A DNA stretch of 64,000 bases, taken from NCBI GenBank assembly GCA_019058315.1, contig JAHPZH010000001.1, forward strand, positions 631,536 to 695,535, given 5' to 3'. Origin of the DNA: Candidatus Helarchaeota archaeon (lineage in GTDB: Archaea > Asgardarchaeota > Lokiarchaeia > Helarchaeales > RDOG01). Shown in pieces: positions 21,088 through 42,195 of this stretch; within the stretch, counting starts at the first letter, position 1, and the number at the start of each line of letters is the position of its first letter. The notes beneath the pieces were generated by a model. That model ran no database searches. It was not told the origin of the DNA and saw only the letters and a program-made list of their open reading frames with translations. A program made the translations under genes and the position numbers.

Positions 21088-22404
21088 TTATATTGCAGTT
21101 TTTTTGGCACCCCAAAGACCCATTGCAACGCCCAATTCTCTATGATCTTTTGCATATTTTGCTAAAGGTATATTTTCCATGGTAGCATCTATTGCTTGGC
21201 GAAATGCCATCGCACCTGATCGAGGACCATCTGGATGTGCGTGGATTCCTCCGCCAGAACCAATAACAATATCATTACCTAAAGTCTTCATACATTTATC
21301 AACCATCCCTGCAGTAATTCCTCCTGAAGGCATCGGAAACATTGGCTTAATGTTTGCCATAGGAAACCGACAGTTTCGGGCAACTCTTGTGAATTTTTCA
21401 GATATTACAGAGGCTTTACCATAAGGGGCAGGATGTACAACTATATCTGCACCGCACAACCGTGCAAATTTAGCTAATATTAAATGTGAACTTACTCCAT
21501 GCCAAGGACTCATATACATAGCTCCCGCATAATCCATATGTGCTAGAATCGGAACTTTCACACTTGGATCGCTAGAGAGTTTCCTTAAAACAGGTAATCC
21601 CATAACTAGGTAATTAACCATCAATGCATTAGCTCCTAATTCTTGAGCTTTATCCGCATTTTCGAAGAAGTTTTCTAAATTATCTGTTATGTTTACTGTA
21701 AATAGAGTATCTTCTCCTGATTCTTCCTTGGCTTTGTCCACCTCTTCCATATAGGCAGGTACTCTTTGTTCAAGTGTATTAAAATTTTGATTTGCAAGCA
21801 ACTCATCATCTTTGATTACGTCACAACCTCCCACAGCAGCATCAAAAAATAATTCTCTAAATGAATCATTCCAAGTATAGACACAGGGTTTTATCATGTT
21901 ATTTAGCAAGGGGCGTTTAGGAATATTCAATCGTTTTCTAACACCTTCAATACCAAATTTCGGACCTTTGAAATCCTTCAGATAAGATTTCGGGAACCTA
22001 AGATCTACCATTTTCAAATCTCCACCCATACTTATATTACCAAAGGTGGCAGTTAACATCATAGCTATTTGATTCGCCATATTTATTACTGGAAATGCTA
22101 TTGAAATTGCATACGTACGTTTTGGTTCTTCTTTTTTACCAGGTCGTTCAAATTCATAATCCGGTAGTTGAGTAGCCCAAAGTACTCGCGCAACATGTTT
22201 TTTTCTAACTTCTGGTGTTTCTGCTGGGACAGGAGTCCATGTACCAGTACTCTGTTCAATTGCTAATGCAGGACCTATAAGATCCACATTGATATTTGCA
22301 TCCACCATTCCTATATATGTCCCAATTATATAATCTTCAAAATCAATACCATCTGGAAGTGCCCAAGGCTCAGCCATAAGATCTGGTGGTTCATATTCAC
22401 TCAT
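21088..22404 (-). CDS. RuBisCO-like protein (form IV RLP)
   Basis: EQSTGTW, GPKFG, MIKP, DVIKDDE, PSGG and GGGIHAHPDG motifs. The Lys177 and Arg295 equivalents are replaced (IKPC, AHM). Confidence 0.9.
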   Translation of the reverse strand: MSEYEPPDLMAEPWALPDGIDFEDYIIGTYIGMVDANINVDLIGPALAIEQSTGTWTPVPAETPEVRKKHVARVLWATQLPDYEFERPGKKEEPKRTYAISIAFPVINMANQIAMMLTATFGNISMGGDLKMVDLRFPKSYLKDFKGPKFGIEGVRKRLNIPKRPLLNNMIKPCVYTWNDSFRELFFDAAVGGCDVIKDDELLANQNFNTLEQRVPAYMEEVDKAKEESGEDTLFTVNITDNLENFFENADKAQELGANALMVNYLVMGLPVLRKLSSDPSVKVPILAHMDYAGAMYMSPWHGVSSHLILAKFARLCGADIVVHPAPYGKASVISEKFTRVARNCRFPMANIKPMFPMPSGGITAGMVDKCMKTLGNDIVIGSGGGIHAHPDGPRSGAMAFRQAIDATMENIPLAKYAKDHRELGVAMGLWGAKKTAI

Positions 22405-22732
22405 TTCATTTCAAAACTCCTAAATTAATTTATATTATTTATTTAATAATTAGATTAAAATTATTTAACAATTTTTAATTTAAAAAAAATTTCAATTTGA
22501 AATGCATTTTTAAATTAAAATTTTATCTTAATTACTTTATTTAATATGACTAAAAGGGAAATAATACTAAATTAGATAAGAATTTAAAATCTTAATAAAT
22601 TTTGAATAGAAATATTAAATTTAATAACAAAAGGATTGCAAAACAAATATAAATAAAAAAAAATGAAGGTTCCTCATTAAATTTTAAATATGTCAAAAAA
22701 GTGATATTATTGTACTATATTAGGGATGATTC

Positions 22733-23584
22733 ATGAATTCAGATTCTGAGGAAAAACGAGACCGGATTGGCTGGTTTCAACTCCAACTTCTTTTACAGTT
22801 AGCTTTTAGACCTAAATATGGATATGAGATAATTAATGAAATGAAGATTAATGATATTAAGATTTCAACGGGTCAAGTATACCCAGCCTTAAAAAAATTA
22901 GAAAATAGTGAATATCTGAAAAGTTTTTCAAAAAAAGGAAAGGCTGCAAGGCGAAAATACTACGAAATAACTAAGAAAGGGTTAGAAGCAGTTCGAAATA
23001 CAATTAAACCCATGATATTTAACTTACTCCCAGCTGTTTACACACTACTTGCTGATATTAAAAAAAATATTTTCGATATTGCTGAACTTAAAGAAGGCGA
23101 TAAAGTATTAATATTTTCCGACCCAATTAAACAACCACTTCTCGATTTGGCTCGAATCGTAGGCTATGACGGTGAAGTATATATAACAGTAAATACCCCC
23201 GCAAGTTTTCAAACCGTAAATGATTTCGCTTTATTTTATAATCTTGAAAAAGTCATTAAACCTGTAATTTTAAATGATAAATTTAAGATTCAATTAGGAA
23301 GTAACATTGTAGATCATGGAGTTTTTATGCTTTTTCAACGTCAACAAAGGCAAGCAGCCCAAGAAATTCTGAATGAAATAAAAAGATGTACTAAAAAAAA
23401 TTCAGCGGTTTATATTTTATCAACTGAACCTGGTCTTTTTAGTGAAACTTTTTTGAACTTCTTTGATTTCAGTTATGGTTATGAACAAGAAGAAATTATG
23501 GATTTCTGTAAAGTTGCTGGGCTTAAAATTGAAAGCGTAGATGATATTCAAAGAATTTTTATCATAAAATGTAGAAAAGAGTAA
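22733..23584 (+). CDS. PadR-family regulator fused to a methyltransferase-like Rossmann domain
   Basis: YGYEI...GQVYPALKKLE...RRKYYEITKKG, then LKEGDKVL...LARIVGYDGEVY...LNEIKRCTK. Confidence 0.8.
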   Translation: MNSDSEEKRDRIGWFQLQLLLQLAFRPKYGYEIINEMKINDIKISTGQVYPALKKLENSEYLKSFSKKGKAARRKYYEITKKGLEAVRNTIKPMIFNLLPAVYTLLADIKKNIFDIAELKEGDKVLIFSDPIKQPLLDLARIVGYDGEVYITVNTPASFQTVNDFALFYNLEKVIKPVILNDKFKIQLGSNIVDHGVFMLFQRQQRQAAQEILNEIKRCTKKNSAVYILSTEPGLFSETFLNFFDFSYGYEQEEIMDFCKVAGLKIESVDDIQRIFIIKCRKE

Positions 23585-27808: not shown

Positions 27809-28930
27809 TCAACCATATCTCATAAATTTATCTAAAGTTGTATCCGAATCTTTTTTATTATCCTTCCCTTCTAATTTGCTCAATCTTCTCTCAATATCTT
27901 TAATAGTATTATGAATTTTTTCAAATTGTTCATCAATATTTCTTAAACTGCGAGTATGAAGAGAAATTTCTTCTAAATCTCTTCTCAAAGAATTTACACT
28001 TTTTTTTAATTGTTCAAAATTCTCGATTTTCCCCTTTTGTTTTTCGAATTCTTTCTCCTTTAATATTAGTACTTTTCCTACCATCTCTGATAATTTTATC
28101 TTTTTATCAAGCTCTTTATCTCCAGAAAATAATTCTAAAGTTGGAGAAATTTTAAAATCTTTAGTTATTTTTTCATAAAGATCTTCAATTTTTGCATTCG
28201 CAGGCAAAAAAAATCTATAAGCTATATCGAAATTTTGCCCCAATTTAATATCAATTGGAACAAATGGGATAACTTCTATTTCATCAATGTTCAATAGTAT
28301 TTCTTTATCTGGAATTTCTTGATAACCATATATAAAAATGGGTCGCGAGAGACATTTTCCAACTTCATGAGCCGCATTACTAATAAAATTAAATCTTAGA
28401 TCTTGTATTTTAGAATTTTTTGGTCCGCATAACTGGAAAGTTATTGGGATTGTGAAATGATAAATTTTTAATCTTTCTTCTCTATTGAGATTCCTGATTT
28501 CTATTTCAATTTTGTGAACTTTATCATTAACGGCATTAAATGCTACTAATTCATCTGGATTTAAAACATATATTATGAACACATTTCTATTGTGACTATC
28601 ACGAGCATATTTTGTAAATGTCTCTTTATCTGTATTGCTAAAGGTCAGCATTCTTCCTGGATGTTTATGCATATTCCCTAAAATTTCTAAGCCGATCGGT
28701 AATCCCGCTCTAAGCCTAAAATCCTTTGCAAAGTCAGTTTCTACATATGTGGGTCCTTGTTCATAATAATCAAATTCAATTAAATCATAACAATAAGCAG
28801 TTTTGCCACGAATTAACCCAACAATATAAAATCCAACTTCTGAGCTGGTTTTTTGCCCTTGTTTAATTGCGTGCTTATATAAAAAATTGGGTAGAACTAC
28901 CTTTTCAATTATTGGTCCATTTTCATCCAA
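27809..28930 (-). CDS. JAB/MPN+ metalloprotease with probable ubiquitin-like domains and a C-terminal coiled coil
   Basis: EVGF...HKHPGRMLTFSNTD fits E-HxH-x7-S-x2-D. Downstream beta-grasp-like segments (LPANAKIEDLYEKITKDFKI...LELFSGDKELD) and a heptad-rich tail. Confidence 0.85.
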   Translation of the reverse strand: MDENGPIIEKVVLPNFLYKHAIKQGQKTSSEVGFYIVGLIRGKTAYCYDLIEFDYYEQGPTYVETDFAKDFRLRAGLPIGLEILGNMHKHPGRMLTFSNTDKETFTKYARDSHNRNVFIIYVLNPDELVAFNAVNDKVHKIEIEIRNLNREERLKIYHFTIPITFQLCGPKNSKIQDLRFNFISNAAHEVGKCLSRPIFIYGYQEIPDKEILLNIDEIEVIPFVPIDIKLGQNFDIAYRFFLPANAKIEDLYEKITKDFKISPTLELFSGDKELDKKIKLSEMVGKVLILKEKEFEKQKGKIENFEQLKKSVNSLRRDLEEISLHTRSLRNIDEQFEKIHNTIKDIERRLSKLEGKDNKKDSDTTLDKFMRYG

Positions 28931-32120: not shown

Positions 32121-32387
32121 ATGAGTGAAGAGGTTGTAACTTTAACATTTGAGAATGCCGCAACTAAAAAGGAATGGAAAGTCCCAGCTGTTTCTTCAGA
32201 GTTGATGAGGGATTATGTAGGTCAAGCAGCAAAACAATTATTTAAACCAATCCCTGCTAGAGTAGGGATTGCAACTAAAGATGGTCAAATCGTTCAAGAT
32301 TGGGGCGATAAATCAGTAAGTACAGTTTTAGAACTATATCGAACTAATTCCTTCGTTTTGGGAAGCCCAGATCAACTTGGTTTCTAA
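32121..32387 (+). CDS. UFM1-like ubiquitin-fold modifier
   Basis: 88 aa. AAKQLFKPIPARVGIATKDG aligns by eye with UFM1 AAEEFKVPAATSAIITNDG; C-terminal PDQLG-F with UFM1 PRDRVG-SC. Confidence 0.72.
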   Translation: MSEEVVTLTFENAATKKEWKVPAVSSELMRDYVGQAAKQLFKPIPARVGIATKDGQIVQDWGDKSVSTVLELYRTNSFVLGSPDQLGF

Positions 32388-32407: not shown

Positions 32408-32956
32408 ATGGGTGAAGATAAGGACTGGCTAGATACTTCTAAATACATTGATAGCATTAGTATCGATTTTGATAGGGATTATCTCTCTAAGCATTTTCTA
32501 GATTTATACCAATTAAAAATAAAATCTCAAGTTATCATCAAAGAGCTACCAAAGTTTAAAAATACAATGAACGTAAGGTCAACCAATTGGCAAAAGAGAG
32601 TTGAAGAAGAATACGAAATTTTCAATATATTAAAGGGAAGATATATTGAACGCATTGGTTTTGCAGTTTTCAATGATTTAAAAGCAGTAGATTCCAACTC
32701 AAGAAAATGGACAGCGATGTATTATCGATCAAAACAATCTAGAGGGATTAATGTAAACATTACTCTAAGCTTGACGTATCCAAGAACTTTTCCTACCGCT
32801 TTGAGAAATGTTGGTGATCGACACTTAACACCTGGTGCAAAATGCTTTGGTGATTTAAAAACACGTTGGGCAAGAGATGGTAGTATGGGTATTTCGCACT
32901 TTTTAGTTATTATCGGCTATTATTTTGCAATAGAAAAACAAAGCCTTCGAGTTTGA
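32408..32956 (+). CDS. UFC1-like E2 conjugating enzyme (copy 1)
   Basis: IKELPKFK...WQKRVEEEY, TYPRTFP and KCFGDLKTRWARDGSMGISHFL, versus UFC1 SEIPVLK...WVQRLKEEY, TYPTTAP and [24 protein letters not shown]. Confidence 0.8.
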   Translation: MGEDKDWLDTSKYIDSISIDFDRDYLSKHFLDLYQLKIKSQVIIKELPKFKNTMNVRSTNWQKRVEEEYEIFNILKGRYIERIGFAVFNDLKAVDSNSRKWTAMYYRSKQSRGINVNITLSLTYPRTFPTALRNVGDRHLTPGAKCFGDLKTRWARDGSMGISHFLVIIGYYFAIEKQSLRV

Positions 32957-32963
32957 AAAATAA

Positions 32964-33494
32964 ATGCCAATAGATATAAAATTATTTGATGTAGGAAGTT
33001 CTATCGGTTATTGGGATTTTATCCGTGATGTTCCTTTATTTAAAACAGTTGCGACTACAAGTAGTAGTAAATGGAAAGAAAGGTTGAAAGAAGAATATGA
33101 AAAATTAAATTATCTGGCAAAATTAACTCAAAAAAATATAATTTTTGACAAAATAGAAGAAGATCGCTCAAATAAAAAAATATTTAACTGTGAAGGACAC
33201 TTTCCTTCTGGAAGAAAAATAACTTTTAATATTCGATTGCCTGTTAGATATCCAAATTCCATTCCTATTGCCGAAAATTTCTATATCCGTGATTGGTATG
33301 TAGGACTTGACAAATTTAAAGCTGCATGTTTTGGTAAAATAAAAGAAAAATGGCGAAAAGATGGTCGTATGGGTTTGGTTCACTTTTTGGTAATGCTTGC
33401 ACATTATACAACTTTTGCTGCATTTAGTATAAATACACCAAAAGTATCAAATTCAAAAAAGAAAAAGAGGTTAAAACAAAAAAGGCTTGGTTAA
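32964..33494 (+). CDS. UFC1-like E2 conjugating enzyme (copy 2)
   Basis: RDVPLFKT...WKERLKEEY, LPVRYPNSIP and ACFGKIKEKWRKDGRMGLVHFL; basic C-terminal tail. Confidence 0.8.
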   Translation: MPIDIKLFDVGSSIGYWDFIRDVPLFKTVATTSSSKWKERLKEEYEKLNYLAKLTQKNIIFDKIEEDRSNKKIFNCEGHFPSGRKITFNIRLPVRYPNSIPIAENFYIRDWYVGLDKFKAACFGKIKEKWRKDGRMGLVHFLVMLAHYTTFAAFSINTPKVSNSKKKKRLKQKRLG

Positions 33495-35185: not shown

Positions 35186-38100
35186 ATTTCAAATTTAAAA
35201 AAAGTCATAATAACAAATTTTAAAACCTTTTTGGGTCGCCACGAGTTAGAATTCCCAAAAAAAGGACTTAGTGTTCTAATTGGTCCTTGTGGTTCTGGAA
35301 AATCTAATGTGTTAGATGCTATTCTTTTTGCAATGGGAATTATTGATGAACGCCGGAAAAATACAGTATTAGAGGTTATTACAGAGGAGCATGAAACACA
35401 TAAACAGTTGGCAAATGCTGCAGAAGTAGAATTAATATTTGAAAATTTAGATGGTGTTCATTCTGAGAATGGGGGAAAATTAAATATTTCAAGGCAATTG
35501 AGAATCCCTGCAAGTGGTCAATTTTATAGCATCTATAAAATGAATGGTAATGAAAGTACAAGATCTGAAATTTTACAGACTTTAAACAAATTTGGAATTC
35601 AACCTGATGGATATAATATTATAAAACAAGGTGAAATTTCAACCCGAATGAAAGATACTCCTGAAAGTAGGAAACAGTTAATAGAAATTGTCTCAGGATT
35701 ATCAGAATTTGATCCTATGATTACAGACGCGGAAAGCAAAATCGATAATTCTCGTAACAATTTAAAACAAATCGATCTTTTACTGAAAGAATCTAAACGC
35801 CAATTATCTGAATTAGAAAAAGAGAAAGAAAGAGCTTTAGAATATAAAGAAATGGAGTCTAAATTAAGTCAATTAAAGGGATTAAAAATACAATATAGAA
35901 AATTTCAATATTTGGAAGATATTAAAAATTTAAAATTGGAAATTGGAAAAATTAAAAAAATTATTCAAGAAGTTGAATCAGAATCTGATAATCTCTTTCA
36001 AAATCTCAAAAAAAATGGGCAAAAAATTGAAGAATTTAGGCAAAAAATTACTGAACTTGAGAAAAATCGCAGTTCTCTTACTGGACATGCTAAATCTATT
36101 GACGATCAAATTCGAGAAATTGAACTAAAAATAAAACAAAACGAAGAAAAGCGTAAATATCAAAAGAAAGATAGAAAGGAAGCACTTCTAAGAGAAATTC
36201 AAAAATTGGAATCAAAAAGACTAGAAATTTCTTCAAAAATGGAAGAAAATGTTAAGAAAAACAATAAAATACAAGGAAATATTCGAGAAGTTCGAGATGT
36301 ATTAGAAAAATATAATAAAGAGCTTCCCGAATTACAAAGTAAGAATAAAGCTATTATATTGAAAATTAGTAACCTGAAAGATGAAATTAATAAACAAACC
36401 AGATTGAAAGATAAAATCGACAAAGAAGTTAGTGAATTACGAATTCGAAAGGATCAATCAGACTCTAAATTCGAAGAAGTCTCAGTAGATTTAGAAAGAA
36501 AAAACAGAAAATTAACTCAAATTAATTCAGAAATCAGTAATATGGCGACAAGAAAGAAAAATTATATTCAAACTATTAACTCAATTACGAAATTTTTTCA
36601 GGAGAGTTTAATAGAATTAAAAGAATTAGAGAAAAAACAACCCATTTTAGACCGAGATCTTAAAGATATGAAAGAATCATTGAAAAAATACGAAGAAGAA
36701 ATGAAAAGTTTGAAACCTCGTTACTCAAGCGATATCAAAGTTATTCTCGAAGGACGAGATAGTGGTAAACTCCCAGGATTAATTGGGACAATATTAGAAT
36801 TAATTAATATAAAAAATATTAATCCAAATTATGCAAAAGCTATTGAAGCAGCTATTAGTGATTATTTTGAACATCTTGTAGTTGAAAATTTTAATGCTTC
36901 AAAAAAAGTAATTGAATATGTAAAAGAAAAAGAATTAGGAAAAACAACTATATATCTTTTAGATAAGATTAAAGGGTGGGATGAAAAAAAACTTCCAATT
37001 TCCACTGGTATTATAGATAAAATGATTAATCTTGTCAAATTTGAGGAAAAATATCGTCAATTATTATCTTTCGTGTTTAAAGATACTGTATTGGCTCAAG
37101 ATTTAGAGACTGCATATAAAATCCATGAAGATTTTAGAGTTGTTACCTTGGAGGGTGAAGTTATTGAACGTAAAGGATATATTATAACCCAAGGAAGATT
37201 TGAACCCAAATTTCTCCTATTATCTGAATATTATAAGGTAAAAATTAAAGATCTTGAAGAAAGAATCCTAAATAAAAGTAAAGAATTGGAAGATATTACC
37301 AGAAAAATAAACAAAATATATGTTAAAAGAGAAAAAGAAGTAAAAAGAAAAGATGAATTAAATAGGTCTATAGGTCAAATTGATGGTAAACAAGAAGAAA
37401 TTATTAATACAAAAGCTGAGCTGGAACAAGATATTGAGGATTTAAGGCATCAAATAAATATTTTAAATGATAATATTGTTGATTATCAAGTAGAAATACA
37501 AAATAAACAAATGGACTTAGCAAATGCATTTAGTGGATTAGACGCTTTGAAATCAGAAAAAGAAAAACTAGATAAAGAATTAAAAACGACAGAATATGGT
37601 CCCATAGAGAAAAAAATAAGAGAAAATAATAATAAATTAAAAAAATTACGAAAAGATGTTAGAGATCTCGAGAAAAAAAGAAACAATTATCGAAATCAAT
37701 TAGTTGATGTCGATTCAAGCATTAAGATTTATAGAGAACGCTATAATTATTCAATTGCAAAAATAGATGAGTTAGATAATGAAAAAGATTCACTAGAAAA
37801 GCATATGGAAGAATTACTTTCAAAAATGGAATCGCAAAATACTGAAATCGCTGAAATTTACTTAGAAATACAAGAATTGGAGAGGGGACAGAAGAAATTA
37901 CAAGATGAAATGGAACTAAAAAAGGAGGAACAGGGTTTTAAAAATAATCAGATTTCCAAGTTAAATGAAAAAATTCATAGTTTAAATAACACAATTGCCA
38001 GAAAAGAAGCATTTATTGAAGAATCCGAAAGCAAGTTAGCCGAGTTAGGAATTGAGTATGATGAAATTCAAAAAATCGATATTGAAAACGTAAATGCTGA

Positions 38101-38758
38101 TATTTATTCATTGGAAAACCAAATGAAATTATTTGGATTAGTCGATCCTAATGCACCAATTAAGTATGAGCGGGAAAATTTAAAATATGAAGAAAGAATT
38201 ACAAAAAAAGAATTATATACAAGAGAGTTGGAAGAGGCTATGAATACATTTTCTGATCTAATTGAACAAAAGAAAACTAAATTCCTTGAAACTCTTGAAA
38301 AAATCAATATTCACTTAAAAAAGGTTTTTAATTACTTCTATAAAGAAGGTACAGCGAAGTTAGTTCCTCAAATTATTAAAGATCCGTTGAATTCAGGAAT
38401 AGAAATCGAAGTAGATTTGGGTTCTGGTATAATAAATAATATCAAAAGCCTTTCAGGTGGGGAGACTAGCTTAGTAGCTATCTCCGTCATCTTGGCTATT
38501 CAAGAATATGAAGGAAGATCTGCACCATTCTATTTCTTGGATGAATTGGATGCACACCTTGATAACACTAAGGGCGAAAAATTGGCCCACCTTATTGCAA
38601 AAATGGCCAAAAATCATCAATATATAATTGTCACCCCAAAAAACAAATATTTAGCAAAATTAGCTAATAGAGTTTTTGCTTTATCAAAAAACGAAAAAGG
38701 ATTTAGTTCCCTACAGTACATTTCCCAAAAAGATTTTGAAAAAGTGGAGGCAACATGA
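35186..38758 (+). CDS. smc: SMC chromosome segregation protein; start extended upstream of the called TTG at 35231 to a probable ATT at 35186
   Basis: In-frame upstream LKKVIITNFKTF, Walker A GPCGSGKSN, Q-loop IIKQG, long coiled coils, hinge (GLIGTILELI...VTLEGE), signature LSGGE and Walker B/D-loop FLDELDAHLD. Confidence 0.93.
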   Translation: MSNLKKVIITNFKTFLGRHELEFPKKGLSVLIGPCGSGKSNVLDAILFAMGIIDERRKNTVLEVITEEHETHKQLANAAEVELIFENLDGVHSENGGKLNISRQLRIPASGQFYSIYKMNGNESTRSEILQTLNKFGIQPDGYNIIKQGEISTRMKDTPESRKQLIEIVSGLSEFDPMITDAESKIDNSRNNLKQIDLLLKESKRQLSELEKEKERALEYKEMESKLSQLKGLKIQYRKFQYLEDIKNLKLEIGKIKKIIQEVESESDNLFQNLKKNGQKIEEFRQKITELEKNRSSLTGHAKSIDDQIREIELKIKQNEEKRKYQKKDRKEALLREIQKLESKRLEISSKMEENVKKNNKIQGNIREVRDVLEKYNKELPELQSKNKAIILKISNLKDEINKQTRLKDKIDKEVSELRIRKDQSDSKFEEVSVDLERKNRKLTQINSEISNMATRKKNYIQTINSITKFFQESLIELKELEKKQPILDRDLKDMKESLKKYEEEMKSLKPRYSSDIKVILEGRDSGKLPGLIGTILELINIKNINPNYAKAIEAAISDYFEHLVVENFNASKKVIEYVKEKELGKTTIYLLDKIKGWDEKKLPISTGIIDKMINLVKFEEKYRQLLSFVFKDTVLAQDLETAYKIHEDFRVVTLEGEVIERKGYIITQGRFEPKFLLLSEYYKVKIKDLEERILNKSKELEDITRKINKIYVKREKEVKRKDELNRSIGQIDGKQEEIINTKAELEQDIEDLRHQINILNDNIVDYQVEIQNKQMDLANAFSGLDALKSEKEKLDKELKTTEYGPIEKKIRENNNKLKKLRKDVRDLEKKRNNYRNQLVDVDSSIKIYRERYNYSIAKIDELDNEKDSLEKHMEELLSKMESQNTEIAEIYLEIQELERGQKKLQDEMELKKEEQGFKNNQISKLNEKIHSLNNTIARKEAFIEESESKLAELGIEYDEIQKIDIENVNADIYSLENQMKLFGLVDPNAPIKYERENLKYEERITKKELYTRELEEAMNTFSDLIEQKKTKFLETLEKINIHLKKVFNYFYKEGTAKLVPQIIKDPLNSGIEIEVDLGSGIINNIKSLSGGETSLVAISVILAIQEYEGRSAPFYFLDELDAHLDNTKGEKLAHLIAKMAKNHQYIIVTPKNKYLAKLANRVFALSKNEKGFSSLQYISQKDFEKVEAT

Positions 38759-39417
38759 GTAAAAATCAGAAAATAACTGGTAAAAAAGTCAAACAAATTA
38801 TAAGATTATGTCAAAGTGCTTTAAAAGGAAAAACTAAATTAGAAGATGCTGATTTATTAAGCTTTCTGCCTACCCTGAGAACCAGGATCCAGAAAGGAAG
38901 TTTTGATTTTACCTCAATAAAAGCTTTTTCCTTAAGTTCGCATGTCTTAGACCTTAAGACAAGAAATTTATTAGGGGAATTCGTTAAAAATGAGGTTAAA
39001 TCTAAAAATAATCTGTTTGAAATACTTGATAATGAAGATTCATTAGAATCGGTTATTTTGTATCCTATTAACAGTTTTAAAGATTTCTTCATAGAAGAAG
39101 ACATTATTAAGGCATATAATGAACTCTTAATATTGCGTAGAAATAGACCTGATTATTCGGTTTTTGGCAAAGAAGGTATATGTGTTCAGAAAGAAAGTGA
39201 ATATGAGGAAGTAGATAGTTTTGAACAAGATAAAATAAATTTTTTCATGAGGCTGAATAAATTAAATAAAAAAGTTATCGATTTTAATTCTTTACAGACT
39301 AATTGGGAAGATGCTGTTATTAATCTCTTATATTTAGTTCACCTCTCACAAGAGGGTAAAATTAATTTGGAACAAAAATTACCTGATAATAAAATCTTTA
39401 TTAGATTAAGAAATTAA
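38755..39417 (+). CDS. scpA: Divergent kleisin ScpA-like protein
   Basis: Overlaps the smc stop; C-terminal winged helix VINLLYLVHLSQEGKINLEQ...IFI typical of kleisins. Confidence 0.72.
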   Translation: MSKNQKITGKKVKQIIRLCQSALKGKTKLEDADLLSFLPTLRTRIQKGSFDFTSIKAFSLSSHVLDLKTRNLLGEFVKNEVKSKNNLFEILDNEDSLESVILYPINSFKDFFIEEDIIKAYNELLILRRNRPDYSVFGKEGICVQKESEYEEVDSFEQDKINFFMRLNKLNKKVIDFNSLQTNWEDAVINLLYLVHLSQEGKINLEQKLPDNKIFIRLRN

Positions 39418-39418
39418 G

Positions 39419-39910
39419 GTGAGAAAATTTAATCATCAAAAAGCTCTTGAGGCTCTATTAATTCTAAGAGGAGAAACAGGAATTTCTGTAAATGATATTT
39501 ATAAAATTACTAAAATTAACGATATTGAATATAGCTTTTATTTATTAAATTTAATTGAAAAATCTTTAAATGATTCTTCCCTTTTTTTAAAATATAACCC
39601 TGCCAAAAAACGGTATTTCTTAGCTCTACCTAATGAATATTATAGTTTTTTATCCGAAAAAGATTTAATAAAATCACCTTTATCAAAAAGTGTTTTAGCT
39701 ACACTTGCCTGCATTATAATAGAATTGGAAGAAGGGGTAGTTACTGTTGAAAAATTAAAACAACTTAGAGGAAAAATGGTAATAAATCATTTAAAATCAT
39801 TGGAAAATGAAGGTTTAATTACAATATCTGAAGAAAATATTCTCCCCACTGATAAATTATTAACAAAAATTAACATAAATCAAGTAATCAAAGGAATAAA
39901 AGAAATATAA
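39419..39910 (+). CDS. scpB: Divergent ScpB-like (kite) protein
   Basis: KALEALL, LSKSVLATLACI and QLRG....HLKSLENEGLI; two winged-helix domains; follows scpA by 1 nt. Confidence 0.75.
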   Translation: MRKFNHQKALEALLILRGETGISVNDIYKITKINDIEYSFYLLNLIEKSLNDSSLFLKYNPAKKRYFLALPNEYYSFLSEKDLIKSPLSKSVLATLACIIIELEEGVVTVEKLKQLRGKMVINHLKSLENEGLITISEENILPTDKLLTKININQVIKGIKEI

Positions 39911-40383: not shown

Positions 40384-42195
40384 ATGAAAAAGCAAACCAC
40401 AGCAATATTATTGATATGTATTATTGCTGGAGCTTCTGGATTTACTTTTGCATACATTTACATGACACAACAAGAAGGAATGGATCTTACATTGTTATTT
40501 TTGGTTATGATACCTCCAAAGATCAATACAGAGCCAGTTGTATTTATCTCTAAATGGGACACAACAAAAACAAGTTCGGGTTCAAGCGCAGTCGATCAGG
40601 TTAAATTGCCTTTGGTATCATTAGGAGATTATGATTTTACGGTTTATTGGGGCGATGGTACTCAAAATACAATTACAGCTTGGAATCAAACCGAAGTAAC
40701 GCACACTTATATTCCGCAAGGTGAGTATACTATTAAAATAAAAGGGAAACTAATCGGTTGGAGATTTAATAATGGGGGAGATCGTTTAAAACTACTTGAA
40801 ATTAGTAGATGGGGTTCCATTCAATTAGGAGATTCAAGCGATTATTTCTACGGATGCAATAACTTGAATCTTACGGCTATTGATAATTTAAATTTAACCG
40901 GGACGAGTAGTCTCCAAAATGCTTTTGGTGCTTGCAATAATCTCGGTAGCACTGGAAATATGAACGGCTGGGACGTCTCCAGCGTCACCGACATGAGCGG
41001 AATGTTCGTTGATGCAGGTTATTTTAATCAAAACATCAGTAGCTGGAATGTCTCTAGCGTCACCGACATGAGTGCGATGTTCTGGGGTACAAGTTCATTT
41101 AATCAAAATATTGGTAGCTGGAATGTCTCCAGCGTTATCGACATGAGCGGGATGTTCTATGGTGCGAGTTCATTCAATCAAGACATTGGTGGCTGGAACG
41201 TCTCCAACGTCATAAACATGGCATCGATGTTCTGTACTGCGAGTTCGTTTAATCAAGACATTGGCAGTTGGGACGTTTCCAGCGTTATTGACATGAACTA
41301 TATGTTCTCTGCTGCGAGTTCATTTGCTCAAGACATCAGTAGTTGGGATGTCTCCAGCGTCACCGACATGAGCGGAATGTTTTTGGGTGCTAGTTGGTTT
41401 AATTCACCTATCGGCGGCTGGAATGTGTCCAGCGTCATAAACATGAATGCAATGTTCCAAGATGCGAGTGTGTTTAATGAAGACATCGGCGGCTGGAATG
41501 TCTCCAGCGTGACAAACATGGGATCGATGTTCCATTATGCGAGTTTTTTTGATCAAGATATTGGCAGTTGGAACGTCTCCAGCGTCACCGACATGAGCGG
41601 GATGTTCTATGGTGCGAGTTCGTTTAATCAAGACATCGGAGGCTGGAATGTCTCCAGCATCATAAACATGGGATCGATGTTTTTTGAAGCATTTTCATTT
41701 AATAAAGACATTGGCGGCTGGAATGTCTCCAGCGTCACAACCATGAATGGGATGTTCTATAATGCAATTTTATTTAATCAAAATATTAGCGGCTGGAATG
41801 TCTCCAGCGTCACAACCATGGCATCGATGTTTGCTTATGCAAGTTCTTTTAATCAATCCATTGGCAGCTGGAATGTCTCTAGCGTCATATTCATGACTGG
41901 GATGTTCAGTCAAGCGACCTCATTTAATCAGAACATCAGTAGTTGGAACATCTCCAGCGTCATAGATATGAGTAATATGTTCAATGGAGTAACTTTATCA
42001 ACAGCAAACTACGATAGTTTACTAATCGGGTGGTCGCAACTACCAGTGCAAAATAATGTACCGTTTCATGCAGGTGGTTCTACATACAGTGCAGCGCCGT
42101 CGCCCGCTGCTACTGGAAGAGAACACCTCACTAACTCCACTAGCTCCATCCCCCCTGGTCATAATTGGCAAATTACTGACGGTGGACCAATATAG
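40384..42195 (+). CDS. BspA/DUF285 repeat surface protein with an N-terminal membrane anchor
   Basis: Hydrophobic N-terminus, PKD-like VYWGDG...HTY domain and 14 repeats [20 protein letters not shown]. Confidence 0.9.
40966..41985 (+). repeat. Intragenic 75-bp tandem repeat (14 units)
   Basis: Units such as ggctggaatgtctccagcgtcaccgacatgagcgggatgttc recur at exact 75-bp spacing from 40966 to 41941. Confidence 0.9.

Follow-up and report, generated by a model that had tools for sequence, protein, structure and literature searches.

A conserved pair of UFC1-like E2 proteins encoded with a ubiquitin-like protein and a UBA5-like E1 in Asgard archaea

A 64,000-nucleotide stretch of the genome of Candidatus Helarchaeota archaeon (hereafter the window; G000:C3:631536-695535, from a genome of 5.8 Mb with GC content of about 30%) encodes, side by side, two E2-like proteins, which we call E2a and E2b. 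By sequence profile, fold and phylogenetic tree, both are nearer to UFC1, the E2 of the eukaryotic UFMylation pathway, than to other E2 families. We infer from sequence comparison that they diverged long ago within an Asgard family that is sister to eukaryotic UFC1. Together with a ubiquitin-like protein (Ubl), a JAB/JAMM protease and a UBA5-like E1, E2a and E2b are fixed parts of a five-gene cassette. The explanation that we prefer, and to which we give an even chance, is that the two E2s both form thioesters and are not redundant, that they draw on a single Ubl and a single E1, and that clade-specific appendages aim them at different targets.

Relationship to UFC1 and the active site

E2a and E2b are paralogs: BLASTP aligns them over 134 aa at 33% identity (E=9e-21). 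The Pfam model of UFC1 (PF08694) is matched by E2a with 14.8 bits (E=0.023) and by E2b with 22.3 bits (E=1.1e-4); at E<=0.01 it is matched by 11 of the 26 members of the family (best E=4.4e-7), and the UQ_con model (PF00179) is matched by one of them (E=0.006). As a lone phmmer query against the PDB, E2a produced no match, so that homology had to be sought with a family profile; E2b retrieved UFC1 at E of about 0.01, in an alignment that pairs the Cys of the two proteins. The profile built from the 26-sequence alignment found all solved UFC1 chains in the PDB (E=3e-12 to 1e-9, nearly full length), whereas UBE2L3 and UBE2N, which scored highest among canonical E2s, came only to about 2e-5; HMMER aligns the family Cys with the Cys of UFC1. 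A profile search of a whole library of 1.84 billion representative proteins likewise reached eukaryotic UFC1, at E=3e-7 to 1e-3. In this library the family amounts to about 45 clusters at 50% identity, and to 39 clusters at E<=1e-10.

AlphaFold2 models of E2a (predicted local distance difference test, pLDDT, 80.8; predicted template-modelling score, pTM, 0.74) and E2b (pLDDT 72.5, pTM 0.67) share the succession of a helix, four strands, a loop, a short helix and a long helix. When the models were compared to the PDB with Foldseek, UFC1 accounted for the top 28 matches of E2a (E=1e-5) and the top 27 matches of E2b (E=3e-4), with template-modelling scores of 0.6-0.7, ahead of canonical E2s. UFC1 structures are distinguished by an extra N-terminal helix α0 and by the lack of the C-terminal helices α3 and α4. 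The E2a model has a helix at residues 34-46, ahead of α1, and ends after the single long helix 162-178; the E2b model, too, ends in a single long helix, and has no confident helix ahead of α1, with pLDDT below 50 for residues 1-17.

A tree was rooted on HPN-bearing E2s, among which are three encoded in the window's own genome; it joins eukaryotic UFC1 and the Asgard family, apart from these E2s, with support of 99% in the Shimodaira-Hasegawa-like approximate likelihood ratio test (SH-aLRT). Monophyly of the Asgard family has SH-aLRT support of only 80% and carries a long-branch warning, and the tree leaves eukaryotic UFC1 unplaced relative to E2a and E2b. Within the family, E2a (8 rows, 99%) and E2b form distinct, well-supported clades whose split is deeper than the order Helarchaeales.

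Five columns are invariant in a 58-sequence alignment that includes 8 eukaryotic UFC1 proteins: those of an R, an E, a Y, a P and the Cys. The Cys is C146 in E2a and C122 in E2b, in the same column as C116 of UFC1. Both models are predicted to place it directly before the short helix that follows β4, i.e., at the E2 active-site position of the UBC fold. No member of either clade has lost this Cys, the loss by which ubiquitin E2 variants (UEVs), for instance Mms2 and Tsg101, are recognized. UFC1 and the two Asgard proteins also have in common the N-terminal signature (I/L)P.(F/L)..A.P....W..R..EE, and with it YP..P, a W past the Cys, and G(I/L)AH.

The surroundings of the Cys differ between the two clades. 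In human UFC1, the TAK motif (T106-A107-K108) is found 8-10 residues ahead of the Cys; together with W145, its residues T106 and K108 set up the oxyanion hole for trans-UFMylation (PMC12032130). The alignment reveals neither the TAK motif nor the canonical HPN motif in E2a or E2b. The spacing from Tyr-Pro to Cys in E2b is the same as in UFC1, 26 residues, with Y-V-G in place of T-A-K. The active-site loop of E2a is 4 residues shorter and has G-D-R-H; a His (His139), 7 residues before the Cys, is invariant within the E2a clade, and Tyr and Glu of a YYxAxE motif (YYFAIE in E2a) occupy the columns of W145 and E149 of UFC1. The His and the Glu are limited to the E2a clade, and the loop of UFC1 length is limited to the E2b clade.

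The original prediction, made from the nucleotide sequence, described a pair of diverged UFC1-like paralogs that retain the catalytic Cys (in AKCFG of E2a and AACFG of E2b, both of which are present) and are devoid of TAK and HPN; the sequence divergence of the pair, the profile and Foldseek ranks, the tree and the alignment all agree with this description. The coordinates of both open reading frames (ORFs) were exact. A reading of the tandem pair as a tandem duplication did not hold up, as the next section shows.

The cassette, its distribution and its history

The features of the locus are listed in Table 1.

Table 1. Features of the E2a-E2b locus (positions in the window)
Feature	Position	Strand	Evidence or remarks
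UBA5-like E1, 270 aa	26987..27799	-	Pfam ThiF, E=1e-43
JAB/JAMM protease with coiled-coil tail	27809..28930	-	HKHPx6SxxD motif; Pfam Prok-JAB weak, E=0.05
Ubl, 88 aa, presumed modifier, ends ...PDQLGF	32121..32387	+	ORF, orthologs
E2a, UFC1-like E2, 182 aa	32408..32956	+	ATG 32408, TGA 32956; Cys146 codon 32843-32845
E2a-clade N-terminal extension, about 46 aa, acidic	32408..32545	+	Ortholog comparison
E2b, UFC1-like E2, 176 aa	32964..33494	+	ATG 32964, TAA 33494; Cys122 codon 33327-33329
E2b Lys/Arg-rich C-terminal tail (TPKVSNSKKKKRLKQKRLG)	33435..33491	+	Ortholog comparison
Cdc48/VCP-like single-domain AAA	33498..35120	+	3 nt past E2b; Pfam AAA, E=1.5e-17
SMC, ScpA-like and ScpB genes	35231..39910	+	Pfam SMC_N, SMC_hinge, SMC_ScpB

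The genes for Ubl, E2a, E2b and AAA follow one another on the plus strand, separated by 20, 7 and 3 nt; inspection of the sequence between them found no terminator-like site. The JAB-E1 pair is located 3.5 kb upstream of the E2 pair, on the opposite strand; the interval between it and the Ubl-E2 run contains genes for a dodecin, a membrane protein similar to the major facilitator superfamily, a GyrI-like protein and a Usp protein. Just 3' of the SMC-ScpAB genes there is a gene for a 603-aa protein with six DUF285 repeats (E=8e-199; 40384-42195, plus strand).

Among 400 genomes of the phylum, the family was found in 18 with a single protein query and in 24 with a profile query; 19 genomes have strong matches. 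The gene order in the relatives is Ubl-E2a-JAB-E1-E2b-AAA-SMC-ScpA-ScpB. In three Helarchaeales genomes (G123-G125), the genes Ubl-E2a-JAB-E1-E2b share a strand, and in G125 they lead on into AAA-SMC; in two more (G126, G127), E2a-JAB-E1 is found beside two E2b-type genes and AAA-SMC-ScpA-ScpB, with Ubl on another contig. The cassette is thereby kept in five Helarchaeales relatives. Ubl-E2-JAB-E1-E2 is the order in G119, which belongs to Jordarchaeia by the NCBI name of one protein (Freyarchaeota/Jordarchaeia). The AAA gene is syntenic with E2b in five relatives, and the SMC/ScpA/ScpB order recurs in relatives from families f2 and f3.

Among the loci compared, direct adjacency of E2a and E2b is specific to the window's genome; because JAB-E1 lies between the two genes, and on their strand, in the relatives (loci L042-L044 and L046), the adjacency is a local rearrangement that moved JAB-E1 away. 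Orthologs of E2a are 46-51% identical to the window protein, and those of E2b 39-43%. A recent tandem duplication was considered and rejected, given the 33% identity of the paralogs, their separate deep clades, and the position of JAB-E1 between them in the relatives: the two are ancient lineages that normally flank JAB-E1.

Outside of the complete cassette, UBA5-like E1 genes of other Asgard families are located directly upstream of a UFC1-like gene, and no arrangement is more widespread among Asgard families than this E1-E2 adjacency, which corresponds to the E2b position; E2a always adjoins the Ubl gene where Ubl is in the cluster. Genomes of one family (f25) have a single UFC1-like gene, and those of another (f24) have E1-E2 pairs with no adjacent second E2. 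Asgard families with small genomes have two or three UBA5-like E1 paralogs per genome, at 41-53% identity (G289:C167:56-805 and 22057-23365; G290:C1:24214-25513; G283:C24:4304-5875); several of these immediately precede a UFC1-like gene, which suggests that more than one such system operates in parallel. A genome from the same family and another genus (G128, 94% complete) was searched as well, with one query each for E1 and Ubl. Neither the E2s nor Ubl had a match there, and the best match to the window E1 was just 30% identical; E2s, Ubl and this E1 thus appear to be present or absent together.

The window genome encodes three UFC1-like proteins in total, one Ubl and one UBA5-like E1. The third UFC1-like paralog (G000:C11:449941-450450; L045:6942-8138, minus strand; 398 aa) keeps the Cys, has N-terminal HEAT repeats (HEAT_2, E=1.5e-31), and has no adjacent E1 or Ubl. 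Some relatives in the protein library have the UFC1-like domain fused to other modules, namely Roadblock/LC7 with a Ras-family GTPase, Ras without Roadblock/LC7, or HEAT repeats; metagenomic examples include P0013 (456 aa), P0025 (362 aa) and P0022 (398 aa). Such HEAT and Ras/Roadblock fusions fit the idea of E2s that carry their own targeting part.

The two clades of the cassette differ in their appendages. All eight members of the E2a clade have an acidic N-terminal extension (44-52 aa, or 44-70 aa by ORF call), with the pattern DxISID...FL(T/D)(P/L)YQLKIK, and none of the eight has a C-terminal tail. In the E2b clade, 14 of 15 members have 6-13 K/R and at most two D/E past the last helix. 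The Lys/Arg-rich tail of copy 2, SKKKKRLKQKRLG in the original prediction, is confirmed in the ORF and is a conserved feature of the clade; the LG at its end, also pointed out there, is indeed present in the window and is kept in just 3 of 15 orthologs. Accordingly, the LG end was rejected as a Ubl-like conjugatable terminus. UBE2S, which is the best canonical E2 match of both models by fold, offers an analogy for the tail: it is an HPN-bearing E2 for ubiquitin with a Lys-rich C-terminal docking peptide. In G126, the E2b ortholog (L041:8229-8762, C36) ends in ...TPR where the basic tail would start; an in-frame TAG is flagged in the matched frame, and either a truncated tail or a sequencing issue could be the reason.

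As to the other partners, Ubl is the only protein of its type in the genome. It ends in ...PDQLGF in the window (32382-32387), in ...PDQLG in three relatives, and in ...PDMLGN in G119 (ortholog coordinates L042:8193-8459, L043:4929-5195, L044:3779-4066 and L046:6542-6799); since the masking residue is present or absent, the need for C-terminal processing varies by genome. The best PDB match of the E1, the sole one of UBA5-like type in the genome, is UBA5 (E=5e-26), followed by MccB (1.5e-17) and ThiF (4e-14). Orthologs of the JAB protein sit between E2a and E1 in the relatives. The AAA protein has its best PDB matches in Cdc48/VCP (E=9e-19). Two SMC-hinge proteins of about 1190 aa are encoded in the genome, one in the window (G000:C3:668308-668658) and one elsewhere (G000:C11:660663-660974); the hinge match has 82 bits for the former and 29 bits for the latter.

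No UFL1-like match was found within the 64-kb window in a search with PF09743; RING domains were not searched for. The earlier statement that no E3 is visible in the window therefore stands for UFL1-like proteins. Elsewhere in the genome, a search for UFL1/DDRGK1-like E3s, as the prediction had advised, found two loci that match E3_UFM1_ligase (PF09743) above the cut-off, G000:C11:225662-226219 and G000:C1:161036-161518, the latter protein having also a weak DDRGK match. Judging by these domain matches, the two proteins are candidate scaffold E3s for the E2a/E2b system. Canonical ubiquitin-type E1-E2 sets are also found elsewhere in the genome, outside the window, and their UQ_con E2s carry WHPN.

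How the two E2s may share one modifier

The preferred explanation can be laid out as a series of steps. The JAB protease, or another peptidase, would strip the residue that masks the terminal Gly of Ubl. The single UBA5-like E1 would then adenylate Ubl and hand it to the Cys of either E2, C146 in E2a or C122 in E2b. The charged E2s would be non-redundant, each steered to its own partners or substrates by the clade-specific appendage. E2b would be the candidate for DNA-bound or SMC-associated targets, as its gene is consistently found next to those of the Cdc48-like AAA and SMC-ScpAB, and its tail is basic.

Several observations weigh against this explanation or against the link to UFMylation on which it draws. 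E2a and E2b both score under the gathering cut-off of PF08694 (25 bits). Because TAK, which is tied to trans-UFMylation, is missing in both E2s, their transfer chemistry may differ from that of UFC1. Ubl is not tied to UFM1 by sequence, either by Pfam Ufm1 on the genome or by a Ubl profile against the PDB; a comparison of Ubl to the ESM Atlas gave generic β-grasp leads only, and no UFM1 link. The E1, with just 270 aa, ends with the adenylation domain and has no UIS/UBS (UFC1-binding) tail. The confidence of AlphaFold2 is low in both appendages, with pLDDT of about 50 in the E2a extension, and the E2a extension, being acidic, and the E2b tail, being basic, are complementary in charge, which would equally fit a heterodimer.

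This last point leads to the possibility that the pair works as one unit, either as an obligate E2a:E2b heterodimer, similar to Ubc13-Mms2 with both Cys kept, or as a thioester relay, in which E1 charges one E2, and Ubl is handed to the other, which then acts like a Cys-dependent E3. Each of the six Helarchaeales genomes with the system contains both lineages, as does G119; the acidic extension could pair with the strongly basic tail; no UFL1-like E3 is in the cassette; and with an E1 devoid of the UFC1-binding tail, at least one of the E2s must dock in some other way. However, in Ubc13-Mms2, the textbook UBC-fold pair, Mms2 has lost the Cys, as have the known E2 heterodimer partners (UEVs) at large, and both Asgard proteins keep it. 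The two genes, moreover, are parted by JAB and E1 in most relatives and are not translationally coupled, and there are genomes with a single UFC1-like gene (f25), or with E1-E2 pairs and no adjacent second E2 (f24). We consider such a unit rather unlikely. Its most specific form, in which the two appendages would enable a heterodimer or relay of the two Cys-bearing E2s that tags SMC-ScpAB or DNA-bound proteins without a UFL1-type E3, and the Cdc48-like AAA would extract the targets, is clearly improbable; if true, it would represent a forerunner of UFMylation in prokaryotes, directed at the chromosome and built around a catalytic core of two E2s. A division into a single working E2 and a regulator, i.e., a decoy or adaptor that binds E1, Ubl or AAA/SMC, and whose Cys may be kept, for example, for redox sensing or for auto-modification on the Lys-rich tail, would be in line with the most widespread adjacency being that of E1 and the E2b position, with E2a adjoining Ubl, and with the distinct catalytic surroundings of the two clades. 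Yet, for all their deep divergence, neither clade shows any change in the Cys or in the W/G/H framework around it, and no member has lost the Cys. Such constancy is not expected of a non-catalytic scaffold, and we regard this division as unlikely. Finally, the two E2s may serve two modifiers. In autophagy, one E1, ATG7, works with ATG3 and ATG10, which serve ATG8 and ATG12, respectively; one non-canonical E1 with two E2-like enzymes resembles this pattern, and the second modifier could be an unrecognised Ubl, such as a β-grasp segment of the JAB protein, which ends in ...MRYG in the window. The JAB orthologs, however, end in YI, FI, VD or EG, the genome has one Ubl of its type, and the cassette contains no other conserved small ORF that ends in Gly. 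The C-terminal Gly of the JAB protein was, for these reasons, rejected as a mark of a second modifier, and the two-modifier scheme appears very improbable.

Relation to known systems and implications

Eukaryotic UFC1 (PF08694; PDB structures: 2Z6O, 3EVX, 3KPA) is the best profile and structural match of E2a and E2b, and the likeness extends to the single long C-terminal helix of the models and to the UBA5-like E1 encoded nearby. Unlike UFC1, which is a single protein, the Asgard family in this genome has two paralogs and a third, fused one, with clade-specific appendages and without TAK. The cassette also differs from the UFC1 system in having a JAB metalloprotease instead of the UFSP cysteine protease, and in having no UFL1 or DDRGK1 in the cluster; the Asgard E1, unlike UBA5, is without the UFC1-binding tail. 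With canonical E2s (UQ_con) and the ubiquitin operons of Asgard archaea and Caldiarchaeum, E2a and E2b share the UBC fold, the Cys in the loop between β4 and the helix, and an operon with E1, Ubl and JAB (Rpn11-like). In contrast to canonical E2s, they lack HPN, and the HPN-bearing E2s of the same genome are encoded beside other E1s and fall outside the clade of UFC1 and the Asgard family.

UFMylation is seen as an innovation of eukaryotes, and its known role in eukaryotes is at the ribosome and the endoplasmic reticulum. A phylogenomic study has placed UFM1 and UFC1 in eukaryotes only (Picchianti et al. 2023, PMC10183829). Ufm1-like modifiers have been described in nine Asgard clades (Koestlbacher et al., Nat Microbiol 2026, PMC12962969; bioRxiv 2024.07.03.601958), and the searched text of that work mentions no UFC1-like E2 alongside Asgard Ufm1. 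The Ubl encoded beside E2a is presumably one of these published modifiers. Our literature search, which was incomplete, so that earlier reports are possible, found no prior report of an Asgard UFC1-like E2; the one paper it turned up that names both Asgard and UFC1 is the one that confines UFC1 to eukaryotes. What is new here is the occurrence of archaeal UFC1-family E2s that are without TAK and are used as a conserved pair.

The locus and its relatives would supply the missing carrier enzyme of the pathway, in the form of a small Asgard sister family of UFC1. Its members share an operon with genes for a UBA5-like E1 and a Ubl, so that it can be tested directly in vitro whether the E1-E2-Ubl core arose in archaea, and the absence of TAK makes the family a natural experiment on E2 catalysis. 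The provision of two E2s per Ubl and E1, together with the link to the Cdc48-like AAA and SMC-ScpAB, points away from the ribosome and endoplasmic reticulum role.

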